Origin: Arcobacteraceae bacterium
GTDB taxonomy: Bacteria; Campylobacterota; Campylobacteria; Campylobacterales; Arcobacteraceae
DNA length: 64,000 bases
Assembly: GCA_048268245.1 (NCBI GenBank)
Contig: JBLWVX010000013.1
Location: 8,356-72,355, forward strand
Reading direction: 5' to 3'
Shown here: in pieces, positions 8,779 through 64,000 of the stretch
Layout: each line of letters starts with the position of its first letter
How positions within the stretch are numbered: position 1 is the stretch's first letter
The notes under the pieces: generated by a model
Databases searched by the model: none
Seen by the model: the letters and a program-made list of their open reading frames with translations, nothing else
Told to the model about the DNA's origin: nothing
Program-made: the position numbers and the translations under genes

Positions 8779-9153
8779 ATGAAAGCAATAAATTCAACAA
8801 AAGCACCAAGTGCAATAGGACCTTACTCACAAGCAGTAGATAAAGATGGTTTTATCTTTGTATCTGGTCAATTACCTATTGATGAAAATACAGGAGAGTT
8901 TGCAGGTCAAACTATAAAAGAGCAAGCAAAACAATCTTTAGAAAACATCAAGTTTATTTTAGAGGAAGCTGGTTTAGAAATGAAAGACATTACAAAAACA
9001 ACTATTTTATTAAAAGATTTAGAAGATTTTGTAGTAGTAAATGAAATCTATGGAAGTTATTTCTCTGAGCCTTTCCCTGCAAGAGCTACATATGAAGTAT
9101 CAAGACTTCCAAAAGATGCACTAATAGAAATAGAAGCAATAGCAAAAAGATAG
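8779..9153 (+). CDS. ridA: RidA-family reactive imine deaminase
   Basis: [29 protein letters not shown]. Confidence 0.9.
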
Positions 9154-9179
9154 TATCAAATTTTACATGGAGAGCTAAA

Positions 9180-10418
9180 ATGAAGAAAGATATTGTAATA
9201 GTAGGTGGTGGTTGTATAGGACTTATGAGTGCTTACTGCTTACAAAAAAGTGGAAGAGACGTAACAGTAATTGAGAAAAATGATATTACAGATGGTACAT
9301 CTTTTGGAAATGCAGGTTTATTATCTGCATTTAAAAAAGCACCTTTAAGTGCTCCTGGTGTTGTACTTGATACATTAAAGCTTATGGCAAAAGGACAATC
9401 ACCTGCAAGTGTTCATCCAACTTTTGATTTACACTTATATAAATGGCTTTTAAAATTCGCAGCTAGTGCAACTGAGTCAAGACTAAAAAGAACACTTGCC
9501 TTATTTGAAAGATATGGACAAATAAGTTTAGATATGTATGAATCAATGGTAAAAGACGATGGTATGGATTTTCATTTCTGTAAAGATGGTTTACTTATGA
9601 TCTATACTGAACAAAATACATTTGATGCAAAAGCAGCTCACTGTAATAATCCTGATGCTTATGAGATTCTTTCAAAAGAGAGAACAAAAGAGTATATGCC
9701 TATTTTAAATGAAAAAGTGATTGGTTCTATTTTATTAAAAGAAAATGGTCATGTTGATCCAGGTGAGTTTATGCTTGAGCTTAAAAAATATCTTGAAAAT
9801 CAAGGTGTAGAGTTCTTACTAAATGAAGAAGTTCAAAGATTAGAGTTTGAAGGTTCAAAAGTTAGTAAAATAAGAACATCAAAAGGCTCTTATGAAGCTG
9901 AAACTTTTATATTATCGACGGGGGCTGATGATACACTAGCTAAACAAGCAAAAAATAAGTTTATGATGACACCTGCAAAGGGATATAGTGTAACTTTTAA
10001 AATGAAAGATGAACTAAAACCAAAAACTTCATCACTTTTTGCTGATTTATTTATAGCTATGACACCAAGAAGACATACAGTTAGAATGACTTCAAAGTTA
10101 GAGCTTGGGACTACAAATCCAAAAGTTGTAAGAAAGCAAATAGATAGTATTCATAAAAACTTGGGATTATATACAAACAAATTTGAAATGAATGAGCAAG
10201 TTGAATGGACAGGGTTTAGACCTCTTACGCCAAATGATATACCAATTTTAGGTTATGATGAAAAATACAACAATCTAGTTCATGCTACGGGACTTGGATG
10301 GTTAGGTATTACATTTGCACCTGCAATTGGAAAGATAATAGGAGATGTGATTACTAAAGATGGTAAAAATGAGACTAATGTTGATGTGTTGTTATTCTCA
10401 GCATTTTATCAAGGGTAA
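9180..10418 (+). CDS. dadA: D-amino acid dehydrogenase (FAD)
   Basis: GGGCIG Rossmann motif, TSFGNAG, KGYS, WTGFRPLTPND, GLGWLGITFAP. Confidence 0.85.
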   Translation: MKKDIVIVGGGCIGLMSAYCLQKSGRDVTVIEKNDITDGTSFGNAGLLSAFKKAPLSAPGVVLDTLKLMAKGQSPASVHPTFDLHLYKWLLKFAASATESRLKRTLALFERYGQISLDMYESMVKDDGMDFHFCKDGLLMIYTEQNTFDAKAAHCNNPDAYEILSKERTKEYMPILNEKVIGSILLKENGHVDPGEFMLELKKYLENQGVEFLLNEEVQRLEFEGSKVSKIRTSKGSYEAETFILSTGADDTLAKQAKNKFMMTPAKGYSVTFKMKDELKPKTSSLFADLFIAMTPRRHTVRMTSKLELGTTNPKVVRKQIDSIHKNLGLYTNKFEMNEQVEWTGFRPLTPNDIPILGYDEKYNNLVHATGLGWLGITFAPAIGKIIGDVITKDGKNETNVDVLLFSAFYQG

Positions 10419-10448
10419 TAGATTTAAGTTATAAAAATTTAAGGAGAG

Positions 10449-11963
10449 ATGAAAATGGTGTTAAAAAAAGTATTGTTATATATGGCAGTGTTATGTCTTC
10501 CAAGCATAGTTTTTGCAGAAGAGGTTATAGGTATAGATAAACAAATAGATCAGTTTTTTAGTGATTATTTAGGATGGTTTGCTAATGCTATCTTTTTTGG
10601 AGCTTCAATTGAAGATGGTGTTTCATTTCCGCTGATTGTTGGATGGTTATTTGTTGCAGCAATTGTTTTAACTATATATTTTGGATTTATTCAATTTAGA
10701 AGATTTGGTTTAGCTGTTGATATTGTTTCTGGAAAATATACTGACCCAAAAGAAAAAAAATCTGGTGAAGTTTCACACTTTCAGGCTCTTACATCTGCAC
10801 TTTCTGGTACTGTAGGACTTGGTAATATTGCTGGTGTTGGTGTTGCTATTGCCATTGGTGGACCTGGGGCTACATTTTGGATGATTTTATGTGGTTTATT
10901 TGGTATGGCTTCAAAGTTTACTGAGTGTACATTAGCTGTAAAATATAGAAATGTAAATCCTGATGGTACAGTATCAGGTGGTCCTATGTACTACCTTTCA
11001 AAGGGTTTCAAAGATGCTGGTTATGCAACTCTTGGTAAGTTCTTTGCTATAGGTTTTGCTGTTATGACAATATTCTCAGCTCTTGGTGCTGGAAACTTAT
11101 TTCAAGGAAATCAAGCAAATGCCATGATTGTTCAAACATTTGGTATTGCTCCTGGCTATGGTTGGGTTACAGGTATTATCTTAGCAGTTTTAATAGCTAG
11201 TGTGATTATTGGGGGAATGCCTTCTATTGGATCAGTTACTTCAAAACTTGTACCATCTATGGCTTTTCTTTATATAGGAATGGCTCTAATCGTTTTAATA
11301 GCTAATTATGACAAAATTGGTTGGGCTTTTGAGCAAATACTTGTAGGGGCATTTACTGGTGCTGGTGTTGCAGGTGGATTCCTTGGGGCATTGATACAAG
11401 GTCTAAAAAGGGCAACCTTCTCAAATGAAGCAGGTGTTGGTTCTGCTGCTATTGCTCACTCAGCAGTAAAAACAAAAGAGCCTGTAACAGAAGGTTTAGT
11501 TTCATTACTTGAGCCGTTTATTGATACGGTTGTGATTTGTACGATGACTGCATTGGTTATTATTATTGCAGGAGTTAATACAGGTGAGTTAACAGGTGTT
11601 ACTTTAACATCAGCTGCATTTACACAAACATCACCAATTTTTGAATACTTATTAACACTTTGTATTGTTTTATTTGCATTCTCTACGATGATTTCATGGT
11701 CTTACTATGGATTAAAAGCATGGACTTATCTATTTGGAGAGGGTAAAAAAACTGAAATTGTTTATAAAACTATGTTTTGTTTATTTGTAGTTGTTGGTAC
11801 AAGTATTAGCTTTGGTGCAGCAATTGACTTCTCTGATGCTGCTATGTTTGCAATGTCGATTTTTAATATCATTGGGTTATACTACTTAATGCCAGTTGTA
11901 AAAAAAGAACTACAATCATATCTTTCAAGAGTTGATTCTGGTGAAATAAAAAAATATAAGTAG
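10449..11963 (+). CDS. Alanine/glycine:cation symporter (AGCS family)
   Basis: GTVGLGNIAGV, GGPGATFWM, GGPMYY, FSNEAGVGS, PFIDT. Confidence 0.9.
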   Translation: MKMVLKKVLLYMAVLCLPSIVFAEEVIGIDKQIDQFFSDYLGWFANAIFFGASIEDGVSFPLIVGWLFVAAIVLTIYFGFIQFRRFGLAVDIVSGKYTDPKEKKSGEVSHFQALTSALSGTVGLGNIAGVGVAIAIGGPGATFWMILCGLFGMASKFTECTLAVKYRNVNPDGTVSGGPMYYLSKGFKDAGYATLGKFFAIGFAVMTIFSALGAGNLFQGNQANAMIVQTFGIAPGYGWVTGIILAVLIASVIIGGMPSIGSVTSKLVPSMAFLYIGMALIVLIANYDKIGWAFEQILVGAFTGAGVAGGFLGALIQGLKRATFSNEAGVGSAAIAHSAVKTKEPVTEGLVSLLEPFIDTVVICTMTALVIIIAGVNTGELTGVTLTSAAFTQTSPIFEYLLTLCIVLFAFSTMISWSYYGLKAWTYLFGEGKKTEIVYKTMFCLFVVVGTSISFGAAIDFSDAAMFAMSIFNIIGLYYLMPVVKKELQSYLSRVDSGEIKKYK

Positions 11964-11974
11964 ATATAATTTGT

Positions 11975-12060
11975 ACAAGAAAGTGTTTTACTTTCTTGTG
12001 CTTGTATTATTTTTATGAAGACAATATAAAGTTTTGTGCTTCTTTGTATTGTCCTCATAA
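11975..12060 (+). terminator. Two tandem stem-loops between permease and alr
   Basis: ACAAGAAAGT/ACTTTCTTGT (11975-11999) and a 19-bp imperfect inverted repeat (12013-12031 with 12042-12060). Confidence 0.55.
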
Positions 12061-12093
12061 GAATAACTTTTTATAAAAATGAGAGGAAAGAGC

Positions 12094-13269
12094 GTGGAAC
12101 TAACAAGAGCTGTTTGGGCTGAAATAAACTTAGATAATTTAGCAAATAATATAAGTGAAGTAAGAAGAGTTACAAACCCTAACACAAAAATATCTGCTGT
12201 GATAAAAGCAGATGGTTATGGGCATGGAGCAGTTGCTATTGCTCAGACATTGCTTGAAAATGGAGCAGATAGATTTGCTGTTGCTACTTTAAGTGAAGCA
12301 ATACAACTAAGAAAAGAGTTTAAAGAAACTCAAATCATGGTTTTGGGATATACACCTGAATACTTAGCCAAAGAAGTAATACAAAACAATATAATCCAAA
12401 CGATATATTCACTAGAACAAGCCCAAGAGTTTTCAAAAGTAGCTAAACAACTAAATAAAGATATTGTTGTTCATATAAAAATAGATAGTGGTATGAACCG
12501 TCTTGGTATGCTTTGCAATGAAGATACAGTAAGCACAGTTTTACAGATAAGTAAGCTAGAAAACTTAGTGATTGAAGGGATTTATACACACTTCGCTGCA
12601 GCAGATGAACTAGATAAAACATATACAAAAACACAAGTAGAGAAGTTCAGTAAAATAGTAGAGCAAATAGAACAAAAAGGTTTATCTATACCTATAAAAC
12701 ATGTTTCAAATAGTGCTGCTATTATAGATATGCCTGAGTTTAACTTCGATATGGTTAGAGCAGGTATCATGCTATATGGACTATATCCATCACAAAGTGT
12801 AAATCATGAAAGAGTAAAGCTAAAAGAAGTGATGTGTCTAAAAGTAAAAATAGCCCAAGTAAAAGAAATCGAAGCAGGCTCAGGAATAAGCTACGGACTT
12901 ACTCATAAATGTAAAGACAAAACAAAAATCGCAACTCTTCCAATAGGCTATGCAGATGGCTATACAAGAATGCTTTCAAATAAAGCAAAAGTTCTAGTAA
13001 AAAACAAAAAAATTCCAGTACTAGGAAATATCTGTATGGATCAGTGTATCATAGACGTAACAGGACTTGATGTAAAAATGGGCGATGAGGTGGTACTATA
13101 TGGAGGAGATAACAAAGATGGAATCTCAATCGATAGTGTAGCAAACCTTCTAAATACAATCAACTACGAAATCGTATGTATGGTAGATAAAAGAGTTCCA
13201 AGAGTGTACCTAAAAGACAATACACAAACAAACTACAAAGACTATGTTCTATGTCTTTGTAAAGACTAA
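12094..13269 (+). CDS. alr: Alanine racemase
   Basis: VIKADGYGHG (PLP lysine), KIDSGMNRLG, SNSAA, ISYG, GYADG; GTG at 12094 follows AGAGGA. Confidence 0.9.
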   Translation: MELTRAVWAEINLDNLANNISEVRRVTNPNTKISAVIKADGYGHGAVAIAQTLLENGADRFAVATLSEAIQLRKEFKETQIMVLGYTPEYLAKEVIQNNIIQTIYSLEQAQEFSKVAKQLNKDIVVHIKIDSGMNRLGMLCNEDTVSTVLQISKLENLVIEGIYTHFAAADELDKTYTKTQVEKFSKIVEQIEQKGLSIPIKHVSNSAAIIDMPEFNFDMVRAGIMLYGLYPSQSVNHERVKLKEVMCLKVKIAQVKEIEAGSGISYGLTHKCKDKTKIATLPIGYADGYTRMLSNKAKVLVKNKKIPVLGNICMDQCIIDVTGLDVKMGDEVVLYGGDNKDGISIDSVANLLNTINYEIVCMVDKRVPRVYLKDNTQTNYKDYVLCLCKD

Positions 13270-13323: not shown

Positions 13324-13645
13324 CTCTTCAACTACTACATATAAAATAATAATCAAGTATATATTTATAAATAAGTGTTATAAAAACTTACTTTTTAATC
13401 CAAAATCAACTAAATAAATAATACTATAATAGTAAAATTATTTTAGGTTTGAAGACGTTTGATATATAAACTTTTTTTCATATCTTTTACAAATCAATAA
13501 AAAATATAAATCCATTTTTCTTTTTAAAATTATCGCTAAATACATTAATTTAACTATAAGCTTAGAAAAGATAGTGGATGTAATTTCTCTTATGTGGAAG
13601 TATCAAAATCGCGAATTTTATTGCAGATAAATTAAAAGGATAATT

Positions 13646-15433
13646 ATGCAAATTAATATAGAAGATATTTGGTTGAATAAAAGTGTTCAAATATACAAAA
13701 AGATAAATGATATACCTAAAAATTCTATAGAAAGATTATTTATTGATTTAGGAAAGAACAGAATTGGAAATTATGTAAAAAATGAGATAAGATTAGAATA
13801 CTCACCTAATATTTACTACTCTATATTATCATTTAAATTTGAAGAAGAACCAAGTTTTCTTCAAAGAACTGATGAAAAAGAAATAAAATATTCATATCTT
13901 TTTATTTTAGAAGCTAATGAGTACTTTTTTGTAAATAAGAAACATATAAGTAGCATAGAAAAACATTTTACTGATTATATAGAATCATTTGATTATGAAA
14001 AGTTTTCTCATTTTAAAGCTGATAAAAATCCAAAATATGAAAAAGTTTCTATTGGTAATATGTCAATTTCTGATGCCGTAATTAGATCAAGAAGTTATGA
14101 AGCTAGTAATTTAGAAGGTACTTTGCCATTATCTTCTGCTAGTAGGTCTATAGCTAGGAGTTTAAGATTAAATGATGCTGGTAAAATGTTTAGTATTACT
14201 CCAAATACATCTCGAATAAGTGAAAGAGATACAAAAATTAGTATAAATAATTACATTTCATGGTGTTTACAAATTGCAAATGAAATTTCATTAAATACAC
14301 AAAGAAGTGATTTTATTAATGGTTTTGCAAAACCAATTTCACTAGAAGATATATTATTAATCTCAAAGCCAATTGGTATTTTATTTCATTTTGAAATTAT
14401 AGAAGAACTAATAGAACTAGAAAACTTAGAATTATATATTGATAATGGCACTTCAAATCGTCTTGCTTTAAATTCTGACGAATTAAAAATGTTGTTTTTA
14501 ATTTTGAGAAAAACATTTAATATCAGAAAAAAAGAGTTAAATAGTAATGAATATGAAGTTTATAACAAACGAATAACTGTAGCTGAATTTAAGACTAATA
14601 AAAAATCAATTTCTTTCAAGGAAAGTATGTTAGATAATATTTTTTTTGATGATAGCTCTGATAATAGTTTAAAAGAATTTATTAGTTCAAATAAATATTA
14701 TTCAATAGTTTTTGATAATCCAAAATATTCTTTTATTGGTAAATATGCTTTTTTAGATAATAGTCTATTAACTAAAACAAATATCAATAAAATTTTATCT
14801 ATTTGTATAATTAATCATGGAATTGCAAATATAAATAGTGAAAAAGAGAAACCTCACTTATCTAGTTTTACTAGATTCCCAGAAGAATCATTATTTTATA
14901 AAGTGGAAGAATATTTTAATACAGGTGTATTAATTTGCGATGATATGAATGATGAATGGGCAGATCATATCAATATAACTGATAATGAAATATCTTTAAT
15001 TCATTCAAAGTTTACAACTAAAGATTCTTATGGTGCTAGTAAAATGCATGATGTAGTTTCACAAGCATTAAAGAATATAGCTAGAGTACATGCAACTATA
15101 GAAGAATATCGAAATAAATATGATACTAAATGGCAAAATACTTATGAATCAACTCAAATAAGTCGTTTGAGAAAAGATGGAAATACAGTTAATGTCAGAT
15201 TTCAAGATATTGAAGAAGCTTTAATTAAAATACATTCTAAACCAAATGCAAGGAAGAAAATATATTTAGCAACTCCTTTTTTTAGTAAAGATACGCTTGA
15301 AATAGAATTAAACAAATTTATTTCAAATTCACAGACTAATGTACATTACTTTCAATTTATTTGGCTGTTAAGTACTTTTATTAGTTCTTGCCAAGATTAT
15401 GGTGTGAATCCATATATTTTATGTAAGGATTAA
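13646..15433 (+). CDS. Uncharacterised 595-aa protein with putative C-terminal PD-(D/E)xK-like nuclease domain
   Basis: AAGGA RBS; C-terminal LICDD..DEWADH..ISLIHSK..SKMHDVVSQALKN pattern; 3 nt upstream of hamA. The ORF is solid, the function is inferred. Confidence 0.55.
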   Translation: MQINIEDIWLNKSVQIYKKINDIPKNSIERLFIDLGKNRIGNYVKNEIRLEYSPNIYYSILSFKFEEEPSFLQRTDEKEIKYSYLFILEANEYFFVNKKHISSIEKHFTDYIESFDYEKFSHFKADKNPKYEKVSIGNMSISDAVIRSRSYEASNLEGTLPLSSASRSIARSLRLNDAGKMFSITPNTSRISERDTKISINNYISWCLQIANEISLNTQRSDFINGFAKPISLEDILLISKPIGILFHFEIIEELIELENLELYIDNGTSNRLALNSDELKMLFLILRKTFNIRKKELNSNEYEVYNKRITVAEFKTNKKSISFKESMLDNIFFDDSSDNSLKEFISSNKYYSIVFDNPKYSFIGKYAFLDNSLLTKTNINKILSICIINHGIANINSEKEKPHLSSFTRFPEESLFYKVEEYFNTGVLICDDMNDEWADHINITDNEISLIHSKFTTKDSYGASKMHDVVSQALKNIARVHATIEEYRNKYDTKWQNTYESTQISRLRKDGNTVNVRFQDIEEALIKIHSKPNARKKIYLATPFFSKDTLEIELNKFISNSQTNVHYFQFIWLLSTFISSCQDYGVNPYILCKD

Positions 15434-15436
15434 TAG

Positions 15437-16321
15437 ATGTTAGAAACAGATATAAAAAAAGATTTTTTAGATTTATTTTATCATGTTATTGAAGACTATG
15501 AATTAGAGAATGCAAATAAACTTAATCTTTTCTCATTGGAAATAAAAAATACTATATTTAACATTGATTCACTTTTAGATGAATTGGATGATAATATAAT
15601 ACCCTTTATGTTGTCTAGAAAACAATTAAGAGATATGGATGATAGGTTTGGTGGTAAAAAATCAAGACAAGCAAGAACTAAATTTAGACAATTTACTTCA
15701 AATGAGGGTGAACTAGGAGAAGTATTATTATACTGTTTTTTAGAATCTCACTTGAATGCTCCTAAAATATTATCTAAGTATGAATTAAAAACATCAACTA
15801 ATGATTATATAAAAGGTGCTGATGGTGTTCACTTACTGAAAACAGATGATTCAACATTTCAATTAGTTTTTGGCGAATCTAAATTATATGGAAATTTAAA
15901 AAAAGGTATCTATGATGCTTTTTCATCAATTCTTACTTTTTTAAAAAATAAAAATGATACATATGAAGAAGAATTAATAAATTCTAATTTACAAAAAGAG
16001 GTTTTTGATGATGATTCATATAACGTTATAAAAAGTATTTTATTACCAAAAAGACGAATGTCAAGTAACATTGATTTAGATAATTCCTTTGCCATTTTCT
16101 TGGGATTTGATTATAAACTTGAAGAAAATTTAAAAGGTAAAGATGCACGAGAAAAAATAAAAAAAGATATAGAAAGTATAGTTATGGATAATATTGACTC
16201 ATTTAACTTTCAATTAAAAAAGAATGACTTGAAAGGTTATGAATTCTACATTTACACAATGCCTATTAATAATATTGAAAGTACGAGAAAAAGAATGATT
16301 GAAAGGCTATCAAATGGATAG
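15437..16321 (+). CDS. hamA: Hachiman HamA (DUF1837) nuclease
   Basis: GELGEVLLYCFLE..APKILSK..K..GADGVH..FGESKLY signature; directly upstream of an SF2 helicase. Confidence 0.85.
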   Translation: MLETDIKKDFLDLFYHVIEDYELENANKLNLFSLEIKNTIFNIDSLLDELDDNIIPFMLSRKQLRDMDDRFGGKKSRQARTKFRQFTSNEGELGEVLLYCFLESHLNAPKILSKYELKTSTNDYIKGADGVHLLKTDDSTFQLVFGESKLYGNLKKGIYDAFSSILTFLKNKNDTYEEELINSNLQKEVFDDDSYNVIKSILLPKRRMSSNIDLDNSFAIFLGFDYKLEENLKGKDAREKIKKDIESIVMDNIDSFNFQLKKNDLKGYEFYIYTMPINNIESTRKRMIERLSNG

Positions 16322-18896
16322 TAATATTTATAATAAGTTAGCTAATGATGCTATAAAAGATGGTTATTTAAATGAACTTTTATCAAAATTAGTAGAAATA
16401 AACCATCAACAAATTTTTAAGGAGTTAGAAACTTCTAGTTTATCAAATAATGAGTTTATTCATTTATTAAGATTTGCAGATATTATGTCTTGTTCTGATA
16501 AATCAGAATTTAGGAACTATTCTTTACAGATAATTAGTTTAATGTATGAAAAATATAAATATAATGAAAAATATAAAATAAGTGCATTAGCAATATTTTC
16601 AAAATTGGGTTCTTTTTTTTCAATTGACAAATTTTTAATAACTGATTCAGAGGTTAAATTACCAATAGAAAGAAGTATTGAAGCAAATATGAAAATGAAT
16701 ATTCAAATTGTACCTTTTAATAACTCTTATATTTTTACAGATAATCAATTTGAATTATATAAAAGAATTAGTGCTTCAAAAGCTTTTAGCTTTTCAGCTC
16801 CTACTTCAATGGGGAAGTCTTTTATACTAAAATCATTTTTATATAAAGTAATGCAAAATAATCCACCAGAGAATATTATAATAATGGTTCCTACTCGAGC
16901 ATTAATAAGTCAATTTTTTATAGATATAAAAAGTGAACTTCAAGATATGATTGAATTAAAAAATTATAAAATTCTAACAAACTCAAATATAGTTCAAAAT
17001 GAAGAAATTGAACATAAATATATATTAGTTTTAACGCCAGAAAGAATTTTAAGTTATATATCTTCTTTAGATAATCCCCCTATAGGGTTTTTATTTGTAG
17101 ATGAAGCCCATAAAATAGCATCTCAAAAAGATTCAAGAAGTGTTACTTCTTATTTAGCAATAGAAAAACTATTAAAGAAAAATCCAAATTTAAATTTATA
17201 TTTTTCTTCACCAAATGTATCAAACCCAAATGTATTTTTAGATATGTATGGAAAGGGTAATAATCAAAGTTATAGGCAAATAAAAGAAACATCAGTTAAC
17301 CAAAATTTATTTTATGTTGATTTAATAGAAAAATATTCTATCTTTTTTGTAAATAATACACGTAGTGACAAACAGCGATTAAAAGTATTTGATAAAGTAA
17401 ATTGTTTAAATAATTTTTTATTTGATTTACTTCTAAGTGATAATAATCTTATTTATTGTAATGGGAAAGCAAAAACAATAGAGAAAGCCAAAAGTTTTTA
17501 TGAGTTTCTATCAGTACATAAAAAGTATAAACTTGATTTATCAGAAGAACTTAGAAAAAAGCTAGATATTTCAATTTCTCAGATTAAATCTCATATTCAT
17601 AAAGATTATTATTTAGTTGAGTTTTTAGAATATGGAATTGCATATCATTTTGGTAATATTCCTCAAATTGTCAGAAATATTGTTGAAGAGTTATTTAGGA
17701 AAGGGGTAATTAAATACTTATTTTGTACTTCTACACTTTTAGAAGGTGTTAATTTACCTGCAAAAAATGTGTTAATTCTTAATAATAAGAAAAATAGATC
17801 TATCTTTGAACCTATAGATTTTTGGAACTTGGCTGGTAGGGCAGGAAGGTTTGGGATGGAACTATCTGGAAATATATTTTGTATTAGAGAAGAGGAAAAT
17901 AACTGGGAAAAAAAAGATGAACTCTTAATAAAAAATGATATTGAAATAAAACCTACTGTAAATAAAAAAATTGACTCTAATATTCAGAAAATTGAAAAAG
18001 TTTTACTTGAAAAGGATATATCTGGAACAGAAGAAGAGAAATATATTCTTAAATATATTGCTAATATGATTTGTATAGATACTTTTGATTTAGAAAATAG
18101 TTATAGAAGTCCTATTATAGAACAATTAATTAAAAATAATAAAGATAGAATTATAGAATATGCAAAAAGTAAGATTAATAAGGTTGATATTCCAAATATA
18201 ATACTTCAATCTAACCAATCTATAGATATATCAATACAAAATAAGGTTTTTAAAATTTTAAAATTAAGAAACAGTCAAGGAAAAATAATTAAACTTCCTA
18301 ATGTAATTACATATGAAACTGCAAAAATTATATTAAAAGATATGTTTAATCTCTATGATTGGGACATAAATGAAAAGTTAAAATTTAAAAGTATGGACTA
18401 TTTTGCTCTTCTTGTTACTCAATGGGTTAATGGTACAAGTTTAAATCAAATTATTAATGATTCTATTAGTTGGCATATTGATAATCAAAAAGAGATTTAT
18501 ATCAATAATAAAAGTGATGGTTTATTTAATAAAAATAATTTAATGCATGTTAATGAATTAATCAATCAGATTATAGATAATATTGAAAGAAAACTAAGAT
18601 TTGTTTTTGAAAAATATTTTACACATTATAACTCAATTTTGATTGCATTATATGGTGAAAAAAATGCAGGTGTAAATTGGGCACAATATTTAGAATACGG
18701 AACACAGAATAATGTTGTAATTATATTACAAAATCTTGGTCTTTCAAGATACACTGCTAATTTTATATATAAAAATTATAAACAAGCTTTAGTTTTAGAT
18801 AATGATGGAAACTTTCAAAAAGTTAATAAAGAATATTTATTAAATAATATTAATAAAATTTCAATTGAATTTGAAGAGATACAGAATATTTTATAG
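16314..18896 (+). CDS. hamB: Hachiman HamB Ski2-like SF2 helicase
   Basis: APTSMGKS, PTRAL, TPER, DEAH, GIAYHFG, CTSTLLEGVNLPA, NLAGRAGR; ATG at 16314 after AAAGG overlaps the hamA end by 8 nt. Confidence 0.88.
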   Translation: MDSNIYNKLANDAIKDGYLNELLSKLVEINHQQIFKELETSSLSNNEFIHLLRFADIMSCSDKSEFRNYSLQIISLMYEKYKYNEKYKISALAIFSKLGSFFSIDKFLITDSEVKLPIERSIEANMKMNIQIVPFNNSYIFTDNQFELYKRISASKAFSFSAPTSMGKSFILKSFLYKVMQNNPPENIIIMVPTRALISQFFIDIKSELQDMIELKNYKILTNSNIVQNEEIEHKYILVLTPERILSYISSLDNPPIGFLFVDEAHKIASQKDSRSVTSYLAIEKLLKKNPNLNLYFSSPNVSNPNVFLDMYGKGNNQSYRQIKETSVNQNLFYVDLIEKYSIFFVNNTRSDKQRLKVFDKVNCLNNFLFDLLLSDNNLIYCNGKAKTIEKAKSFYEFLSVHKKYKLDLSEELRKKLDISISQIKSHIHKDYYLVEFLEYGIAYHFGNIPQIVRNIVEELFRKGVIKYLFCTSTLLEGVNLPAKNVLILNNKKNRSIFEPIDFWNLAGRAGRFGMELSGNIFCIREEENNWEKKDELLIKNDIEIKPTVNKKIDSNIQKIEKVLLEKDISGTEEEKYILKYIANMICIDTFDLENSYRSPIIEQLIKNNKDRIIEYAKSKINKVDIPNIILQSNQSIDISIQNKVFKILKLRNSQGKIIKLPNVITYETAKIILKDMFNLYDWDINEKLKFKSMDYFALLVTQWVNGTSLNQIINDSISWHIDNQKEIYINNKSDGLFNKNNLMHVNELINQIIDNIERKLRFVFEKYFTHYNSILIALYGEKNAGVNWAQYLEYGTQNNVVIILQNLGLSRYTANFIYKNYKQALVLDNDGNFQKVNKEYLLNNINKISIEFEEIQNIL

Positions 18897-19654
18897 ATTT
18901 TAAGTTAAAAGATAGTGAAAACTATGCGATTTTACATGATCTAAGACTTGAGATAGATGGTCTAACTGCACAAATAGACCATCTACTTATAAACAAAGCT
19001 ATAGGTATAATACTAGTTGAAACTAAAAATACAAAAGCAGAAGTTACTATAAATGACGATGGAACTATGTTATATAAATACCCAAATAACAAGACTTATA
19101 ATCAAGCAAATCCACTAGAACAATCAAAAAGACATGAGCTAGTAGTAGAAAAGATATTAGACAAATACAATATGAAATCAAATATCACATCTTATGTAGT
19201 ATTTTTACCAAATGTAATTATCAAAAATAAAACTCTTCCAAAAAACTTTTTAAGATCAGATACTTTTTATGATTCTATTTATACAGAGTTTACACATAGT
19301 CCAAGGAAGGTATTAACAGCTGCTGCAAAACTATTTATAAATAAAATGCCATCAACAAAAGAGATTAGAAATATAGGGAATATTTTAGTAGCAGAAAACA
19401 AACCTATAAATATTGACTACGATGCGAAATATAAAATTAAAAAAGAAATAGAAAAGAAAGTAGAAGAAGTTATCGTAGAAAAAGCTATTTACCATGAAAA
19501 AAATATGAAAAAATTCAGAGATATTAAAAGCTCAAAAAAATACATGGGAAATGAAATGCTAAGTTTTATCTGTATTAGCTGTGGAAAAGAACAGAGAAAA
19601 GGCTTGAAAACTTTTAGTACAAAAGAGGTTTTTTGTAATCATTTCAAAGTGTAA
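18896..19654 (+). pseudogene. 5'-truncated NERD-domain nuclease with C-terminal Cys motif
   Basis: In-frame sequence upstream of ATG 19067 reads DFKLKDSENYAILHDLRLEIDGLTAQIDHLLI..VETK (NERD core) with no start codon; NPLEQSKRH; CISC near the end. Confidence 0.75.
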
Positions 19655-19748
19655 GATTTTTTTGTAAAAATATTTTTTAGTGTTATTATATGTTAACGTT
19701 TTACCAACATCAGAAAAACGATAAAAAAATCTATTAAAAGGTTTTATT

Positions 19749-20147
19749 TTGGAACAAGAGTATAACAGTTGAAATAATATTAAAAAAGATATAGCAAAAG
19801 AAAATATATTTGTAGGATTTAAAAATAGAGATATATTTTATATGAATATGGGAAAGAATATTGGCTTTGAGCAAGATGGCAAAGGTGAAAACTTTGTTCG
19901 TCCAGTTGTTATTGTAAAAGGATTTAACAAAAATATGTTTTTTGGTATTCCTTTATCTACTAAGATAAAAGAGGGTAAGTTTTATTATAGATTTACATTT
20001 TGTAAAAAGGATAAAGAAGTAGAAAATATTGCGTTATTATCTCAGATGAGACTTTTTAGTACAAAAAGACTTTTAAATAAAATTGGTATGATGAAGATAA
20101 ATGATTTTGAAAATATGAAAAATAAGTTTAAAGAGTTGATAGATTAA
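19749..20147 (+). pseudogene. PemK/MazF-family toxin with nonsense codon
   Basis: AAAAGG RBS and TTG at 19749; TGA at 19770 (codon 8); then FKNRDIFYMNMGKNIGFEQDGKG..RPVVIVK..IPLST..SQMR. Confidence 0.75.
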
Positions 20148-20185
20148 CCCCATCAAAAAGATGGGTCGTCCCGTAGGAATTTAGG
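20148..20185 (-). ncRNA. Candidate small structured RNA convergent on pemK
   Basis: TCC-TACG-GGA tetraloop and CCCATC-TTTTT-GATGGG hairpin on the minus strand, immediately downstream of a minus-strand promoter. Confidence 0.4.
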
Positions 20186-20190
20186 ATTAA

Positions 20191-20219
20191 ATTATAACAC
20201 AAATTATAAATAAATGCAA
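20191..20219 (-). promoter_or_regulatory. Sigma70 promoter antisense to pemK
   Basis: TTGCAT-17 nt-TATAAT with TGn extended -10. Confidence 0.65.
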
Positions 20220-20253
20220 TAACAAGCTAATTGTATTAAAACAATCCATAATA

Positions 20254-20282
20254 TTGACTTTGTAGTATAAAGGTACTACAAT
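20254..20282 (+). promoter_or_regulatory. Sigma70 promoter with palindromic operator
   Basis: TTGACT-17 nt-TACAAT overlapped by TTGTAGTA-N6-TACTACAA. Confidence 0.7.
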
Positions 20283-20307
20283 TTATAAAAATAAAGAGGA
20301 TTGAATT

Positions 20308-20364
20308 ATGTCTTTAGATTCAGAAGTAAGAGCAAGAGTAGAAAATAAACTAAAAATAAAGTAA
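20308..20364 (+). pseudogene. RelB/DinJ-like antitoxin N-terminal stub
   Basis: GAGGA RBS; MSLDSEVRARVENKLKIK* matches the ribbon-helix-helix start of RelB/DinJ proteins. Confidence 0.6.
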
Positions 20365-20367
20365 TTT

Positions 20368-20835
20368 ATGACACTCATAAACAAAACAACAGCCTACATC
20401 ATAACAATACCACTATTTACTATCTGGTTACTTTTTTGCTTCCTCATTTCTCTTATTGGTTCACTTCTTTATAAAAAAAGAGTTCTTATTGATTTGGATA
20501 GGGTGAAGAAAAGAGATACTATTTGTAGTGTCTTAAATAGTAAAAAATACCTAAGTGATGAAGAATATGAGTTTGAGACTGTTGAGGTGGCTTCACTTTA
20601 TGATGAGCTTACTTTTAGGGGATATTTGTTTGTTTTGGCTCCTGTGATATTTTTACTAAAGCATTTTAGTTTTGCTGATGATTTTGTTTTTTATCTTGTA
20701 AAAAAGTGGATGAAGATACACAAATATCAAAGACAACACAAGAAAAAAGCAAAAAGTTTCTTCTCTGCTCTTATGTCTTTGTGTGTTTTACTTGCCTTTT
20801 TTGTAGGGCAGGTTTTGTATAGAGTAAAACCTTAA
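20368..20835 (+). CDS. Hypothetical membrane protein
   Basis: 155-aa ORF with three hydrophobic segments. Confidence 0.6.
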   Translation: MTLINKTTAYIITIPLFTIWLLFCFLISLIGSLLYKKRVLIDLDRVKKRDTICSVLNSKKYLSDEEYEFETVEVASLYDELTFRGYLFVLAPVIFLLKHFSFADDFVFYLVKKWMKIHKYQRQHKKKAKSFFSALMSLCVLLAFFVGQVLYRVKP

Positions 20836-20844
20836 AACCCTTTT

Positions 20845-23313
20845 TTATTCACCAAATAAAACATTCTCTTTTTGATGTATGATTTTAGATGTAAAGAAGT
20901 TTACAACTAAGATAGTAAGTATTGGTATTAGTAAGAAATAAAGCACTAGTATATCAGCTCTAAAATCCCAATACGACTCAAAAAGTAAACTACTTATAAA
21001 ATATGAACCAACACTTCCAAGTATGATTCCTATACTACTAGCACTAAGTGCTATCAGTCCAAACTCCAATAAAAATGAGTTTTTAATAGTCTTATTTTTT
21101 ATACCTATCATCTTTAGTCGTAGGATGTTATTTTTTTGCAAGTTCATTTGATACTGTATGATGATAAAACTCATTAAAAGCCCAATAGTTACAGAGTATA
21201 AACTCATCTTTTCAGTGATAGCTGTCACATCATCAACCACTGTGGCAAATGACTCAAATAAACTTTTCACATCTATTACCGTAAGACTAGGGAACTTATC
21301 TGTTAATGTAAGTAGCATTTTTGAAGTATCATACTCTCCTGTAGAGATAGTTGCTAGCATAGTTTTTGGAGCGTCATTTATAGCTCCTTCTTGCAGTAGT
21401 AAGAAGAAGTTTGGTGTAAACTCTGTCCATTTTACTGATCTTATGTTTACTACTTTAGCAACTAGTTCAAGTCCTAGTACATCAAATACTACTGTATCTC
21501 CTAGGCTTATACCTCTTCTTTTTGCATATCTTTTTTCAACACTCATTTCAATAGGTTTTGAGTAATCAGCAGAGTCATAAACTCCACTAAATTCTCTACC
21601 TTCAAGTATTTGTTCACTTGGTTTTAAATCACTTCTGTATGATAGGTTTACTGTAGAGTTTCTTGCATTTTCACCTTCTTGTGATTGTTCTTTTCCATTT
21701 ATTTTAAGAACTCTTGCTCTTATCATTGGAGCAATATTTTCAAGTTTTGCTCCCATGTTTTCAACTTGTTTACTTATGTCATTTAGTTGCTCTTCTTTTG
21801 CATCTACTACAAAAAATCTAGGTCTTTCTTGTACACTTTTAGTAAGTACATTTGATAAAGAACTTCCAACTTGTGGTATCAAACTAAAGAATGCAGTACA
21901 TAAAAGTATCGCACTAAATAGTGTAAGTGAGGTTCTTTTTTGTCTTGTGATATTTTTTAGAGCCAGCGATAAAGCTAGGTTATCAAGATGACCTGAAAAA
22001 TCAAATCTTTTTAAGATAAAAGAGCCTATACCAAAAAGTAGGGCGATGATTACTAAAACACTTAAAGCAAAGAAAAATCCTATATTCTTAGCAGGTGTTA
22101 CAAAGTGTGAAAGCACAAGTAAGAAAACTACAAAGGGAGTGAAGCTTAAGATAACTCGTGATAGTCTTCTTTTCTGTCTTTGAACTAGTGGTAGTATCAA
22201 AGGAAGCCCAATAGATAAACTTAAAGCAAAAAGTACCACAGCAGACTTCACAAAAAACATATAATCAAGACTAAAATCAAAACTAAAGTCAATATACTTT
22301 TGAATAAGTGGTCCTATAAATTGCGCTGATAAACTTATAAAAGCAAACACCAAAACAGTTGCTATTGATATAAGTACAAAAAGATGAAGCAAATAAGTCA
22401 TAATAAGATTTTTCTTACTAACACCTATATCATTTAAAACTGTGATGTCTTGCTGATGTTTTTTCAAAAAGCCTGAATATAGATATATAAGTCCCACAAG
22501 TCCCAAGAAAAAGGAAATCAAAGATACAAGTGATAAGAAGTTTGTCAAGAAACTTAACACTGCTATAAGTCTATCTCGTCCATCATTTGGTGATAGAACT
22601 CTAAGACTTCTATCAAGTTTGGTTTCTATTTGCTCTTCTAACTCTTCTAGTTTGTCATTACTTAGGTTTTGCTCAAAAAGATAGTTTAGTTTATATCTAG
22701 CTGTTGAACCAAACTTTAGAAGTTCACTTCTTTCAAGACCTTTGGGACTTAAATATACTTTTGGCATAAAACCACTAAAGCTTATGTTTTTAAGGCTATC
22801 TTCTTTTATAACTTTTACTATAGTGTAGTTTTTGCTTCCTATCTTAAGATTACTTCCAAGAGTAAGTCCTAATAAATCTAAAACCTCTTGATATACCCAA
22901 ACTTCATTTTCTTTTGGTAGGGCTTGCCCTTTTGGATAAGTAGTGTTATCTTTGAAAACTAAACCACCATAGTATGGAAAACCTTTGTTTATTTGTACAA
23001 GTTCCATAAGTCTAGCTCTTTTAGAAGAAGCTACCATACTTACTGTTGATATTCCCTCATCAAAGCTTTTGATTTGAGGAAGTAGGTTTTTTACTTGCTC
23101 TTTTTGGGCATCACTTATTGGAAATCTAGAGTTTACTACTAAATCAGCTCCAAGTAAACTTTTTGCTTTTGTATCAAGTGAAGTATCGATACTTCCTTTA
23201 AAAAACTGTAAGTAAGATAGTGAAGCAATAGCTAAACAAAAGTTTAGTATAAAAATAAGACTAAAGGATTTTGATCTTTTAAGGGCTTTTGAAACTAGTT
23301 CAACTACTAACAT
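20845..23313 (-). CDS. YbbP-like FtsX-family ABC permease
   Basis: LLGADL, PYYG, FFVVD, VKW..FTPNFF; two TM bundles. Confidence 0.85.
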   Translation of the reverse strand: MLVVELVSKALKRSKSFSLIFILNFCLAIASLSYLQFFKGSIDTSLDTKAKSLLGADLVVNSRFPISDAQKEQVKNLLPQIKSFDEGISTVSMVASSKRARLMELVQINKGFPYYGGLVFKDNTTYPKGQALPKENEVWVYQEVLDLLGLTLGSNLKIGSKNYTIVKVIKEDSLKNISFSGFMPKVYLSPKGLERSELLKFGSTARYKLNYLFEQNLSNDKLEELEEQIETKLDRSLRVLSPNDGRDRLIAVLSFLTNFLSLVSLISFFLGLVGLIYLYSGFLKKHQQDITVLNDIGVSKKNLIMTYLLHLFVLISIATVLVFAFISLSAQFIGPLIQKYIDFSFDFSLDYMFFVKSAVVLFALSLSIGLPLILPLVQRQKRRLSRVILSFTPFVVFLLVLSHFVTPAKNIGFFFALSVLVIIALLFGIGSFILKRFDFSGHLDNLALSLALKNITRQKRTSLTLFSAILLCTAFFSLIPQVGSSLSNVLTKSVQERPRFFVVDAKEEQLNDISKQVENMGAKLENIAPMIRARVLKINGKEQSQEGENARNSTVNLSYRSDLKPSEQILEGREFSGVYDSADYSKPIEMSVEKRYAKRRGISLGDTVVFDVLGLELVAKVVNIRSVKWTEFTPNFFLLLQEGAINDAPKTMLATISTGEYDTSKMLLTLTDKFPSLTVIDVKSLFESFATVVDDVTAITEKMSLYSVTIGLLMSFIIIQYQMNLQKNNILRLKMIGIKNKTIKNSFLLEFGLIALSASSIGIILGSVGSYFISSLLFESYWDFRADILVLYFLLIPILTILVVNFFTSKIIHQKENVLFGE

Positions 23314-23969
23314 TTCTCTAAGTTTCCATGATTTAGTGAATAAGTCTGCTCACATCTAGCAGCCACATCTTTTGAGTGAGTTACTAAAATCAAAGTTGTA
23401 TTGTTTTTTTTGATTAGCTCAAAAAGTTTATCCATCACAGCTATTCCTGTTTCTTCATCTAAGTTTCCACTTGGTTCATCTGCTAAGATAATCTTTGGAT
23501 TATGTATCAAAGCCCTTGCTATTGCAACTCTTTGTTTCTCCCCACCACTAAGTTCTGAGGGTAAGTGATCAAATCTATGTCCTAAGCCTACACTCTCCAA
23601 AAGTTCAATCGCTTTTTCTTTTGGATTTTTTATACCACATACTTTTGCAGGAAGCATTACATTTTCTAGTGCATTTAAATATGAAACTAGATGAAAGTTT
23701 TGAAAAACAAAGCCTATATTTGAAGCTCTAAAGTCGTTTATTTGCTCTTCTTTCATATCTTTATATGAAATACCATCAAGTAAAATATCTCCTGATGTTG
23801 GTTTGATAATACCTGAAATTAAAGAAAGTAGGGTTGATTTCCCACTTCCTGATTTTCCCATGATAGCTACTCTTGCAGCTTCTTTTACATGAAAATTTAA
23901 ATCTTCATATATTTTTACTTCAGTTGAGCCTTGAGAGTATGATTTTTTAAGTGATTTTATTTGTAGCAT
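23307..23969 (-). CDS. YbbA-like ABC ATP-binding protein
   Basis: GKSGSGKS, LSGGEKQR, ILADEP, VTH. Confidence 0.9.
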   Translation of the reverse strand: MLQIKSLKKSYSQGSTEVKIYEDLNFHVKEAARVAIMGKSGSGKSTLLSLISGIIKPTSGDILLDGISYKDMKEEQINDFRASNIGFVFQNFHLVSYLNALENVMLPAKVCGIKNPKEKAIELLESVGLGHRFDHLPSELSGGEKQRVAIARALIHNPKIILADEPSGNLDEETGIAVMDKLFELIKKNNTTLILVTHSKDVAARCEQTYSLNHGNLEKC

Positions 23970-24577
23970 TATAACTCTTCCTTTAAAAAGTTGAAAACTT
24001 CATTTGCTATGATTTTATGACCTTTTGGGTTTGGATGTATACCATCAGCTTGATTTAGTTCTTGTACTCCTGCCACATCTTTTAGTAAAAAGGGCATAAA
24101 TTTAAGATTGTATTTTTCTTTGATTTCAAGATACATTTTCTCAAATTTCCTTGAGTAATCAGGTCCATAGTTTGGTGGGATTAGCATACCTGCTAATAGT
24201 ACTTTTGCCTTTGATTTTTGAGCATGAGTTATTATCTCTTCTAGATTTTTTTGGCTTTGAGTAAGGTTTAAACCTCTAAGCCCATCATTTGCCCCAAGAG
24301 CAATAAATACAATATCAGGTTTTCTTTTTAGATACCATTTTAGTCTAGCAAAGGCATCACTTGTTGTTGAGCCTGAAACTCCACCATTTATAATTTTTAT
24401 ATTTTTATTTAGTTCTTTTTTTGCTAATTTTTGTACTAAGTTTGGATAGGCTTGATTTTTTGATACCCCTAAGCCCTCAGTTAGTGAATCTCCTAAAAAT
24501 AGGATAGTTTTAGTATTTGAATTTGCTGTTAAAATCTGTAGTGTTATTATACATAGGATAAAAATTATCTTTTTCAT
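23969..24577 (-). CDS. tesA: TesA-like SGNH/GDSL arylesterase
   Basis: Signal peptide, GDSL, LGANDGLRG, PPNYG, DGIHP; adjacent to ybbAP-like genes. Confidence 0.85.
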   Translation of the reverse strand: MKKIIFILCIITLQILTANSNTKTILFLGDSLTEGLGVSKNQAYPNLVQKLAKKELNKNIKIINGGVSGSTTSDAFARLKWYLKRKPDIVFIALGANDGLRGLNLTQSQKNLEEIITHAQKSKAKVLLAGMLIPPNYGPDYSRKFEKMYLEIKEKYNLKFMPFLLKDVAGVQELNQADGIHPNPKGHKIIANEVFNFLKEEL

Positions 24578-33632: not shown

Positions 33633-36600
33633 ATGATGGGTTGTAATTTAGACTTACTAACTTCTTTTAAAGACAACTGTGGTTTTGGTCTTGTTGCAGA
33701 TATGAAGAACAGACCAAGTCATAAGAATTTAGAAGATGCAATAACTTCACTAGAAAGAATGATGCACAGAGGTGCAGTGGCAGCCGATGGTAAAACTGGA
33801 GATGGTTCAGGTTTACTTTTATCTATGCCAGATGAATTTATGAGAAAAATAGCTTCTCAAGATGGTATTGATTTACCTGAAAAATACGCAGTTGCTATGA
33901 TCTTTACAAAAGACTTACAAGACATAGATACTTTTAAAGAGTTCTGTGAAACAAACGACTTAAAAGTTGTGTTAACTAGAGATGTTCCAGTTGATACTGA
34001 AGCACTAGGACAACAAGCTTTAGAGACATTACCGCATATTATTCAAGTATTTGTTACTCCAAATACTTTAATGTCATCAAAGAGATTTGATGCAATGTTA
34101 TACATGACAAGAAAAGAGTGTGAGCACAAACTAATAGATAAGAAAGATTTTTATATTCCTACATTCTCATCTACGGTGATTGCGTATAAAGGGCTTGTAA
34201 TGCCTACGCATATTAAAAGGTTCTATGTTGATTTAAGAGATGAAGATTTTAAAATCTCATTCTCATTATTTCACCAAAGATTCTCGACAAATACATTACC
34301 TCAATGGAGATTAGCACAACCATTTAGAGCAATTGCACACAATGGTGAGATTAACTCAGTTGAAGCAAATAGATTTAATGTAAAAGTAAAATCAGAAAAA
34401 ATTAAATCTGAAGTATTCTCTGATAAAGAGATTAAAAGACTTTTACCTATATTACAAGAAGGTGCATCTGACTCAGCTTCTTTAGATAATATGTTTGAAT
34501 TTATGTTAGCAAATGGTGTTGACTTTTTCAAAGCTGCAAGATCACTAGTTCCTGCACCTTGGCAAAATGCACCTCATATGGACTCTGACTTAAGAGCATT
34601 CTATGAGTACACAGCTACAGCAATGGAAGCTTGGGATGGTCCAGCAGCAGTATCTTTAACAGATGGTAGACATATTGGTTGTTTAATTGATAGAAATGGA
34701 TTAAGACCTTCTAAATATGTAATTACTAAAGATGACAAACTATACATCACTTCTGAATATGGTACATTAAAAATTGATGAAGACAATATCTTAGAAAGAG
34801 GTAGATTACAATCAGGACAAATGATTGGACTTGACCTTAAATATGGAAAGATTTTAAAAGAAGAAGATATTAATAACTACTTAAAATCATCTCAACATTA
34901 CTCTAAGTGGTTAAATGATGATATGGATTATTTACAAGAGTATATTGAAGATTCTTTCTTAAATACTTCTGATTATAAAGTAGAAGAATTAGAGAAGAAA
35001 CAAAAATATTTCAATATTACTTATGAAGCAATTGATCAAATGATTGAACCAATGGCAAAAGATGGTAAAGAACCTGTAGGATCTATGGGTGATGATACTC
35101 CTTTAGCATGTTTCTCTAAAGTAAATAGAAACTTTACAGACTTCTTTAAACAAAAGTTTGCACAAGTAACAAATCCTCCTATTGATCCATATAGAGAAAA
35201 AGTTGTTATGTCTTTAGAAACTGGATTTGGTAAAGTTCAAAACATCTTAGTTGAAAAACCAGAAGATGCAAAAAGAATTAAAGTAGCAAGTCCAGTTTTA
35301 ATGAAAGAAAAATTTGATGTATTATTCTCATTTGGTGATGAAAACTCTCCAAGATATGATGAATACTACAAAAATAAAACTTTCTCAACTACATTCAAAA
35401 CTGATTTAAAGGAAGCATTACAAGCATTAGCTTCAAATGTTGTAAAATCAGTAAAAGAAGAGAATGTATCTATCGTATTTTTAGATGATAGAGATATTAA
35501 TGATACTTGTAAATTAATTCCTATGGCAATGGCTGTTGGTTATGTAAATCAAGCATTATTAAAAGAAAAAGTTAGACATTGTGTTTCAATTGTTCCTGTA
35601 ACTGGGGAAGTTTATGACCCACATATGGCTGCTGTATTATTAGGTTTCGGTGCAACTGCTATGTATCCATACATGATGTATGCAACAACTGTAGCCTTAT
35701 TTGAAAGACAAGAAATTTCTAAATATGAAATGCAAAGTCTACTTAAAAATACTCAAAAAGCAATTAATGCAGGACTATTAAAAATTATGTCTAAAATGGG
35801 TATTTCTACTGTAGCTTCATATAGAAACTCATCATTATTTGATGCTATTGGATTATCTGATGAAATCGTAACTGACTGTTTCCCTGATGCTTACTCTGAG
35901 TTAGCTGGACTTGGTTATGAAGATATTGAAGAGAGAATTGAAAGATCTCACTTAAATGCATTCCATGATGATAATCATATGTTCCCTCTTGACTTAGGTG
36001 GTTTCTACAAGTATATCAATGGTGGTGAATACCATGATTATGGTCCAGCTACTACAAGAGCAATGCATAATAAATCTGCTACAACAAAAGAAGAAATTAC
36101 TGATTTTGATGGACTTAAAAAGCTAGTACAAAACAGAGATAAGAAATTTATTAGAGATTTCTTAGAATTTAATTCTGATAGAAAACCAATTTCTATTGAT
36201 GAAGTTGAGTCAAAAGAAGAAATTTTCAAAAGATTTGCATCTGCTGCAATGTCTTGTGGTTCTATTTCACCAGAAGCACATGAAGCATTAGCCCAAGCAA
36301 TGAATACAATTGGTGGTTCTTCAAACTCAGGTGAGGGAGGTGAAGATCCAGCAAGATTTAATACGCTTAAAAACTCTAAAATTAAACAAATTGCATCAGG
36401 TAGATTTGGTGTAACTCCTGGATATTTAAGAAGTGCAGAAGAGTTACAAATTAAAGTTGCTCAAGGTGCTAAACCAGGTGAAGGTGGTCAGTTACCAGGT
36501 CATAAAGTAACTCCATTAATTGCAACACTTAGACATACAGTTCCAGGTGTTACATTAATTTCACCTCCACCACATCATGATATTTATTCAATTGAGGATT

Positions 36601-63722: not shown

Positions 63723-63797
63723 TCCGGCATAGCTCAGTGGTAGAGTAGATGACTGTTAATCATTTGGTCCCTGGTTCGAATCCAGGTGCCGGAGCCA
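63723..63797 (+). tRNA. tRNA-Asn(GTT)
   Basis: Cloverleaf, anticodon loop CTGTTAA, TTCGAAT, CCA end. Confidence 0.97.
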
Positions 63798-63829
63798 CTT
63801 TTTTTAATACAATATCATAATTTATAGAT

Positions 63830-63904
63830 TCCGGCATAGCTCAGTGGTAGAGTAGATGACTGTTAATCATTTGGTCCCTGGTTCGAATCCAGGTGCCGGA
63901 GCCA
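63830..63904 (+). tRNA. tRNA-Asn(GTT)
   Basis: Identical 75-nt copy. Confidence 0.97.
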
Positions 63905-63925
63905 TTTATAAATTTTACTTCAAAT

Positions 63926-64000
63926 TCCGGCATAGCTCAGTGGTAGAGTAGATGACTGTTAATCATTTGGTCCCTGGTTCGAATCCAGGTGCCGGAGCCA
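63926..64000 (+). tRNA. tRNA-Asn(GTT)
   Basis: Identical 75-nt copy ending at the window edge. Confidence 0.97.

Follow-up and report, generated by a model that had tools for sequence, protein, structure and literature searches.

A PDC-S71 family gene coupled to type I Hachiman genes in a strain-variable cassette of an Arcobacteraceae bacterium

Three genes and the families to which they belong

The subject of this report is a block of three genes, orf595, hamA and hamB, in a stretch of 64,000 nucleotides (nt) of DNA from an Arcobacteraceae bacterium (assembly GCA_048268245.1, contig JBLWVX010000013.1, positions 8,356 to 72,355 of the forward strand). We call this whole stretch the window, and all positions without another label are positions in it. 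hamA and hamB encode the two proteins of the Hachiman defence system, and orf595, which precedes them, encodes a protein of 595 amino acids (aa). The original prediction, made from the letters of the window, took orf595 for a large putative nuclease and the whole for a three-gene variant of Hachiman. The features are collected in Table 1.

Table 1. Features of the three-gene block in the window
Feature	Position	Strand	Remark
orf595	13646-15433	+	595 aa; intact reading frame
hamA	15437-16321	+	294 aa; DUF1837 nuclease
hamB	16314-18896 (listed TTG start 16299)	+	superfamily 2 (SF2) helicase
Ribosome-binding site of hamA, AAGGA	15425-15429	+	within the last codons of orf595; read from sequence
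RdgC/CENP-N-like alpha-beta part, putative DNA-binding module	13646-14305	+	orf595 residues 1-220
Restriction-endonuclease-like (PD-(D/E)xK-type) domain, predicted	14816-15430	+	orf595 residues 391-595
Motif D432 D433 ... E437 W A D440 H I ... H453 x K455, putative active site	14939-15010	+	from conservation
Strain-variable 5.4-kb cassette, exactly orf595-hamA-hamB	13423-18916		from metagenome contig coverage

The coordinates of the open reading frames (ORFs) agree with the claim of three intact genes in one orientation. The genes are also very close to each other. orf595 ends with TAA at 15431-15433, a TAG follows, and hamA begins with the ATG at 15437, so that the gap is 3 nt; both this gap and the ribosome-binding site inside the 3' end of orf595 can be read directly at 15425-15437, as predicted. 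hamA ends with TAG at 16319-16321, and the reading frames of hamA and hamB overlap by 8 nt (ATGGATAG, 16314-16321). This overlap holds if hamB starts with the ATG at 16314. The list of ORFs gives the TTG as its start; the corresponding 860-aa entry of the protein collection (P0123) agrees with the ATG. A scan of the sequence found no terminator-like sites between orf595, hamA and hamB. Promoter-like sites numbered 56, against 62.8 expected from shuffled sequences, and that scan is neutral on co-transcription. The three genes are probably transcribed together.

The higher AT content claimed for the block is confirmed by GC values of 0.21-0.26 over 13500-20499, against 0.30-0.39 on one side (9000-12999) and 0.30-0.33 on the other (21000-24499), though the AT-rich stretch extends about 1.6 kb beyond hamB. 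The block is flanked by a gene for alanine racemase (12079-13269) and, on the opposite strand, by an ABC/FtsX transporter pair (20845-23969).

The identification of HamA and HamB proved right, with full-length matches to Pfam and PADLOC models. The models matched by HamA are Pfam PF08878 (E 1.8e-55) and, in PADLOC, HamA1 PDLC00156 (E 3.5e-100). Its motif G127 D129 ... G146 E147 x K149 is intact, and the motif residues are invariant across six aligned HamA proteins. HamB matches the PADLOC model HamB1 PDLC00176 (E 1.8e-290, profile positions 2-845 of 845) and has the Pfam domains DEAD and Helicase_C. Judged by these matches, by the canonical gene order and by the overlapping frames, hamA and hamB are an ordinary type I Hachiman, in which both proteins are full-length. 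Type II Hachiman adds a small DUF3223 protein, HamC. Its three-gene layout is similar to that of the window, but orf595 is far larger and unrelated to HamC, and no Pfam match to DUF3223 was found in the three proteins or in the 13 flanking ORFs scanned.

It had been expected that orf595 would match no named system. This is not the case: a PADLOC scan matched it from end to end (residues 4-594 on positions 3-588 of 589) with the model PDLC05077, at E 2.6e-175 and 582.6 bits. On the strength of this match, orf595 is a full-length member of PDC-S71, an already catalogued single-gene family of phage-defence candidates (PDC). The length class and the habit of occurring in defence islands are also those of the family. 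PADLOC files PDC-S71 as a single-gene system, whereas in the window and in two Aliarcobacter loci the gene is translationally coupled to hamAB.

Little else could be attached to the protein by sequence. Searches of Pfam, NCBIfam and PDB sequences gave no match to orf595. Among 20 members of the family, Pfam produced weak and scattered matches (DUF4722 in 7 of the 20, best E 4.5e-4), and no similarity appeared when the family profile was compared with HamA. We detected 143 homologues, mostly of 588-615 aa, in Campylobacterota, Gammaproteobacteria, Bacteroidota and other phyla; all those that carry a name in their source are labelled hypothetical or uncharacterized. The closest homologues have 50-80% identity. 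A lead to DUF6119/TIGR04141 from the ESM Atlas (sub-threshold score 0.88) was dropped; the literature hits for it had no mention of defence in title or abstract. The ESM Atlas otherwise returned only the unnamed clusters of orf595 itself. PF19614 was looked for in 401 genomes of the phylum and not found, but the controls were silent too, which makes this search uninformative.

Predicted structure and conserved residues of orf595

A model of orf595 built with 120 homologues has a mean predicted local distance difference test score (pLDDT) of 89.7 and a predicted template modelling score (pTM) of 0.80. Residues 9-220 of the model appear to resemble in fold the Escherichia coli protein RdgC (2owl), a ring dimer that is statistically the best fold match of orf595. 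The identity in structural alignments is 7-10%, and there is no sequence similarity between the two proteins. orf595 further differs from RdgC in having two additional domains, one of them the putative nuclease.

This last domain, at the C-terminus, has the alpha-beta-beta-beta-alpha-beta core fold of PD-(D/E)xK nucleases in the model. We take its structural matches to share that fold. All of them have Z below 8, and Foldseek found nothing at E<=0.001 when given just the C-terminal domain; our confidence in a restriction-endonuclease-like fold is therefore only moderate. Conservation points to the same part of the protein. Ten residues (E421, D432, D433, E437, W438, D440, K455, Q473, K476 and N477) do not vary among the 120 homologues, nor among 72 C-terminal segments with identity down to about 28%. 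H453 is likewise invariant in the 120 homologues; of the 72 segments, at least 90% keep it. The window protein retains all invariant residues of the family. In the model, D440 precedes strand 441-444, while H453 and K455 end strand 448-454, so that H453-S-K455 has a His where D or E is usual for PD-(D/E)xK. The label of putative nuclease draws support from fold and motif, and the model suggests that orf595 joins a DNA-binding part to a nuclease.

A comparable design is known from Shedu, where a single protein, SduA, senses DNA with its N-terminal part and has a PD-(D/E)xK nuclease at its C-terminus. In the PADLOC scan none of the SduA models matched the sequence of orf595, and the fold predicted for its N-terminus (RdgC/CENP-N-like) is different.

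Distribution and neighbours of the PDC-S71 family

We examined 80 species-level genome loci with orf595 homologues, 40 metagenome loci, one viral locus and two further Arcobacteraceae loci (locus numbers beginning with L are ours). Hachiman was counted as a neighbour if HamA and HamB were found within 10 kb by local hidden Markov models and confirmed by PADLOC. By this measure hamAB is near the homologue in five of the 80 genome loci (L001, L002, L041, L052 and L064), in none of the 40 metagenome loci, many of which have short flanks, and in neither the viral locus nor the two further Arcobacteraceae loci. Tight coupling is found only in L001 and L002, both from Aliarcobacter, where the order is that of the window and the gaps are 4-10 nt. 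The Clostridiales locus L064 has the same order with a gap of 639 nt. In L041 (Zoogloea) hamAB lies upstream of the homologue, and in L052 (Enterobacter) it is encoded on the opposite strand and separated from the homologue by Lamassu. A helicase match in L075, considered as a sixth case, belongs to Shango SngBC instead.

Clustering of 770 neighbour ORFs from 118 loci revealed no partner gene conserved across the family. From this, and from the scarcity of hamAB among the genome and metagenome loci, it follows that PDC-S71 is autonomous. The family is also sporadic and island-borne, as the "S" of its label says. Of 401 genomes of the order, 3 have a homologue of orf595, and for Arcobacteraceae the count is 5 of 184. 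HamA is present in 13 of these 184 genomes, and 10 of the 13 have no orf595 homologue. As a general rule, then, the undescribed three-gene subtype of Hachiman that the original prediction put forward is not borne out. The other option it offered, a new stand-alone defence gene co-transcribed with Hachiman, came close: the family stands alone in most of its loci, but it is not new.

Enrichment of the homologues next to hamAB or other defence genes had been anticipated as well. hamAB is near few of them, as shown above; other defence genes occur within 3.5 kb of the homologue in about half of the loci scanned (15 of 29 loci at PADLOC E<=1e-20 and, at E<=1e-30, 11 of another 25; the scan of neighbours left out L061-L080, with 80 ORFs). 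They are a mixed set, with type I restriction-modification, DarTG, Gabija, CBASS, Shedu, AbiD/AbiE and several PDCs. This company and the sporadic occurrence of the gene speak against the idea that orf595 is a non-immune protein of DNA repair, recombination or mobile-element maintenance that merely travels in variable islands. Something can be said for that idea. RdgC, the best match in fold, is a recombination-associated DNA-binding protein; in L001 and L002 the orf595 homologue follows a gene for an SbcC/Rad50-like ATPase and lies near genes for DUF2779 and a superfamily 1 (SF1) helicase; and a literature search brought up no experimental data on defence by PDC-S71. Nevertheless, in two loci (L033 and L036) the gene before the homologue encodes a type I restriction subunit, and the authors of PADLOC, according to their preprint (10.1101/2024.01.29.577857), chose the family because it was embedded in defence systems. 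We consider a non-immune role very improbable.

The same preprint presents 145 PDC systems as predicted by "guilt-by-embedding" and describes them as untested. Later work (PMC12881386) put seven PDCs and HEC-01 to the test and confirmed four of these eight candidates; S71 is not one of the eight.

Some arrangements in individual loci can be mentioned here. In L033 (20-4643) and L036 (6011-15896) the homologue comes directly after the restriction subunit gene. In L036, DarT/DarG-like genes and PDC-S14 come next, and the gaps around the homologue are no more than 13 nt. The arrangement in these two loci agrees with the way the PDC label arose, from "embedded" genes. A protein of 660-661 aa adjoins the homologues in L028 (11905-13890), L030 (1517-3499), L111 and L113, which come from Pseudomonas and one Planctomycetaceae contig; PADLOC gave nothing for it at the threshold applied. 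Finally, in another Arcobacteraceae genome (G460, locus L130, 2378-3682) a co-oriented radical-SAM gene lies 46 nt before hamA, in the place that orf595 has in the window.

Pairing with Hachiman and the cassette as a unit

In one oyster metagenome (run X4) a contig of 5494 nt corresponds to 13423-18916 without a single difference, at a depth of 10.6, while the contigs on both sides of it have depths of 28-36 and 1-25 differences. Another contig (depth 21.4) joins position 13450 to 18877, a joint that is to be taken with care because it lies on 40 letters of the shorter side at a likeness threshold of 85. The cassette of the three genes is thus present or absent as a unit between strains in this metagenome. 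Its ends have no convincing direct or inverted repeats, only AT-rich matches at the level of chance.

What could be the relationship between orf595 and its neighbours? We favour, as the likelier answer with considerable room for doubt, that the cassette holds two separable systems, PDC-S71 and type I Hachiman, which share one small mobile defence unit in an operon-like array and are possibly synergistic. The adjacency seen in the window and in Aliarcobacter is then best read as linkage of compatible, perhaps synergistic systems, and not as the sign of an obligate third subunit of Hachiman. orf595 itself would have a function in defence, and it may cooperate with HamAB.

Several observations weigh against this answer. 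The window, L001 and L002 represent one clade of orf595 proteins (50-59% identity), and in all three hamA follows 3-8 nt after orf595 with the gene order unchanged. Their Hachiman proteins are far from uniform. HamA is 27-35% and HamB 30-31% identical among the three, and the best PADLOC subfamilies differ (00156, 00163 and 00168 for HamA; for HamB, 00176 in the window and 00186 in both L001 and L002). The window HamB is 46-53% identical to many of the listed homologues (from Bacteroidota and Methanococcoides where a name is given), and hence closer to them than to HamB of L001 and L002. Such low identity and differing subfamilies mean that the orf595 clade was joined to Hachiman more than once. 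The pairing has also been exchanged. The immediate flanking genes of L001 and L002 are about 90% identical (an SbcC-like ATPase upstream and DUF2779 downstream), yet DNA identity drops from 84-93% in the flanks to 61-82% from the start of orf595, vanishes over hamAB and is back at 89.9% after hamB. Since identity breaks at the start of orf595 and at the end of hamB, the unit exchanged was the three genes together. Three Arcobacteraceae genomes have both systems adjacent, against 0.35 expected (hypergeometric P 0.0026, a value that is overstated because relatives are not independent). To this can be added that a literature search for "PDC-S71" found no paper, so that the defence role of the family is that of a candidate.

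These data, apart from the last point, could be explained differently. In this lineage orf595 might be integrated with HamAB, for instance as a first-line sensor nuclease whose cuts supply the damaged DNA that HamAB recognizes, or as a second effector, making a three-component Hachiman whose genes are kept translationally coupled and moved as one cassette by selection. The close spacing before unlike Hachiman subfamilies, co-occurrence above chance, and a three-gene block that was replaced as a whole between L001 and L002 and varies as a whole in run X4 would all be expected from it. Moreover, the loci from Clostridiales, Zoogloea and Enterobacter provide more juxtapositions, and Hachiman is the only recurrent identifiable neighbour of the family across distant phyla. 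There are precedents for genes added to Hachiman, namely Pez-Ham of Streptococcus and, as described in preprints, the trypsin-MBL modules. Pez-Ham (PMC13064477) resembles the present case as a lineage-specific extra module on a self-sufficient Hachiman; its module, however, is the toxin-antitoxin pair PezAT, which represses Hachiman expression, and here it is a large putative nuclease.

Nevertheless, we regard integration of this kind as rather unlikely. Hachiman is missing from the vicinity of the homologue in 75 of the 80 genome loci and in all 40 metagenome loci, and where it is present in Zoogloea and Enterobacter the order and strand differ, with Lamassu intervening in the latter. HamA and HamB are complete canonical proteins, and orf595 has no profile similarity to HamA. 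The tight spacing does not decide the matter. In L001 and L002 the homologue belongs to an array of 5-7 genes, all no more than 12 nt apart, and unrelated flanking genes are included in this; tight spacing is therefore a local habit and no mark of partnership. Two separable systems in one cassette remain our preferred answer.

A few further observations concern the surroundings of the block. In L001 (9152-19459) and L002 (367-14149) it lies between the gene for the SbcC/Rad50-like ATPase and the genes for DUF2779 and an SF1 (Mokosh-like) helicase. The SF1 helicase genes of the two loci have 24% identity and are thus highly diverged, like the embedded block. The upstream gene of L001 is only 278 aa long and matches Metallophos as well as SbcC Walker B, as would a fusion of sbcD and sbcC by deletion. 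A 90-nt similarity between window positions 13543-13631 and the end of this gene (75.6%) was considered as an upstream remnant; it has no counterpart at the protein level, and we do not rely on it. Downstream in the window, the frame that holds "orf195" (18875-19654, plus strand) encodes a NERD domain that covers positions 5-110 of the 111 in the profile (E 9.7e-19). This gene seems to have lost its start, since there is no ATG, GTG or TTG before 19067, and the 5' end of the frame falls at the right edge of the cassette, where the joint is at 18877. An ORF of 101 aa similar to PemK/MazF (19842-20147, plus strand; Pfam E 1.1e-7) has no obvious antitoxin ORF beside it. It is outside the cassette, because its depth and differences in run X4 are those of the flanks. 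Farther away are an ORF of 1479 aa (33633-38072, plus strand) and, at the end of the window, three tandem tRNA-Asn(GTT) genes (63723-64000).

If the two systems in the cassette are both active, their mode of action might be imagined as follows. The RdgC/CENP-N-like part of orf595 would engage some phage-derived form of DNA, and the C-terminal domain with the restriction-endonuclease fold would then cut DNA, by analogy with Shedu; the scheme assigns no role to the middle domain. In parallel, HamB would survey DNA and set the HamA nuclease going on damaged DNA, which is how Hachiman works according to PMC12278908 and PMC11914072. A further step can be suggested, in which the two activities are co-adapted in Arcobacteraceae as two tiers. 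A first selective cut by orf595 would produce ends or damage that HamB senses, and HamA would become active as a result. This would explain the repeated pairing with different Hachiman subfamilies, the translational coupling and the exchange as a 5.4-kb unit. We hold it to be unlikely and mention it as a tentative suggestion.

The orf595 family is already catalogued, and the Hachiman is an ordinary one of type I. What the analysis provides is a first hypothesis on the structure and mechanism of PDC-S71, a widespread candidate family for which no paper was found: a DNA binder with a restriction-fold nuclease, and a short list of residues. The cassette is also a natural test case for the question of whether neighbouring defence systems just share an island or cooperate, with one first gene, three Hachiman subtypes and a block that is swapped as a whole. 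If there is no cooperation, translational coupling and mobility as a unit would be insufficient grounds to name a new subtype. If cooperation is true, one nuclease system would feed the damage sensor of another.

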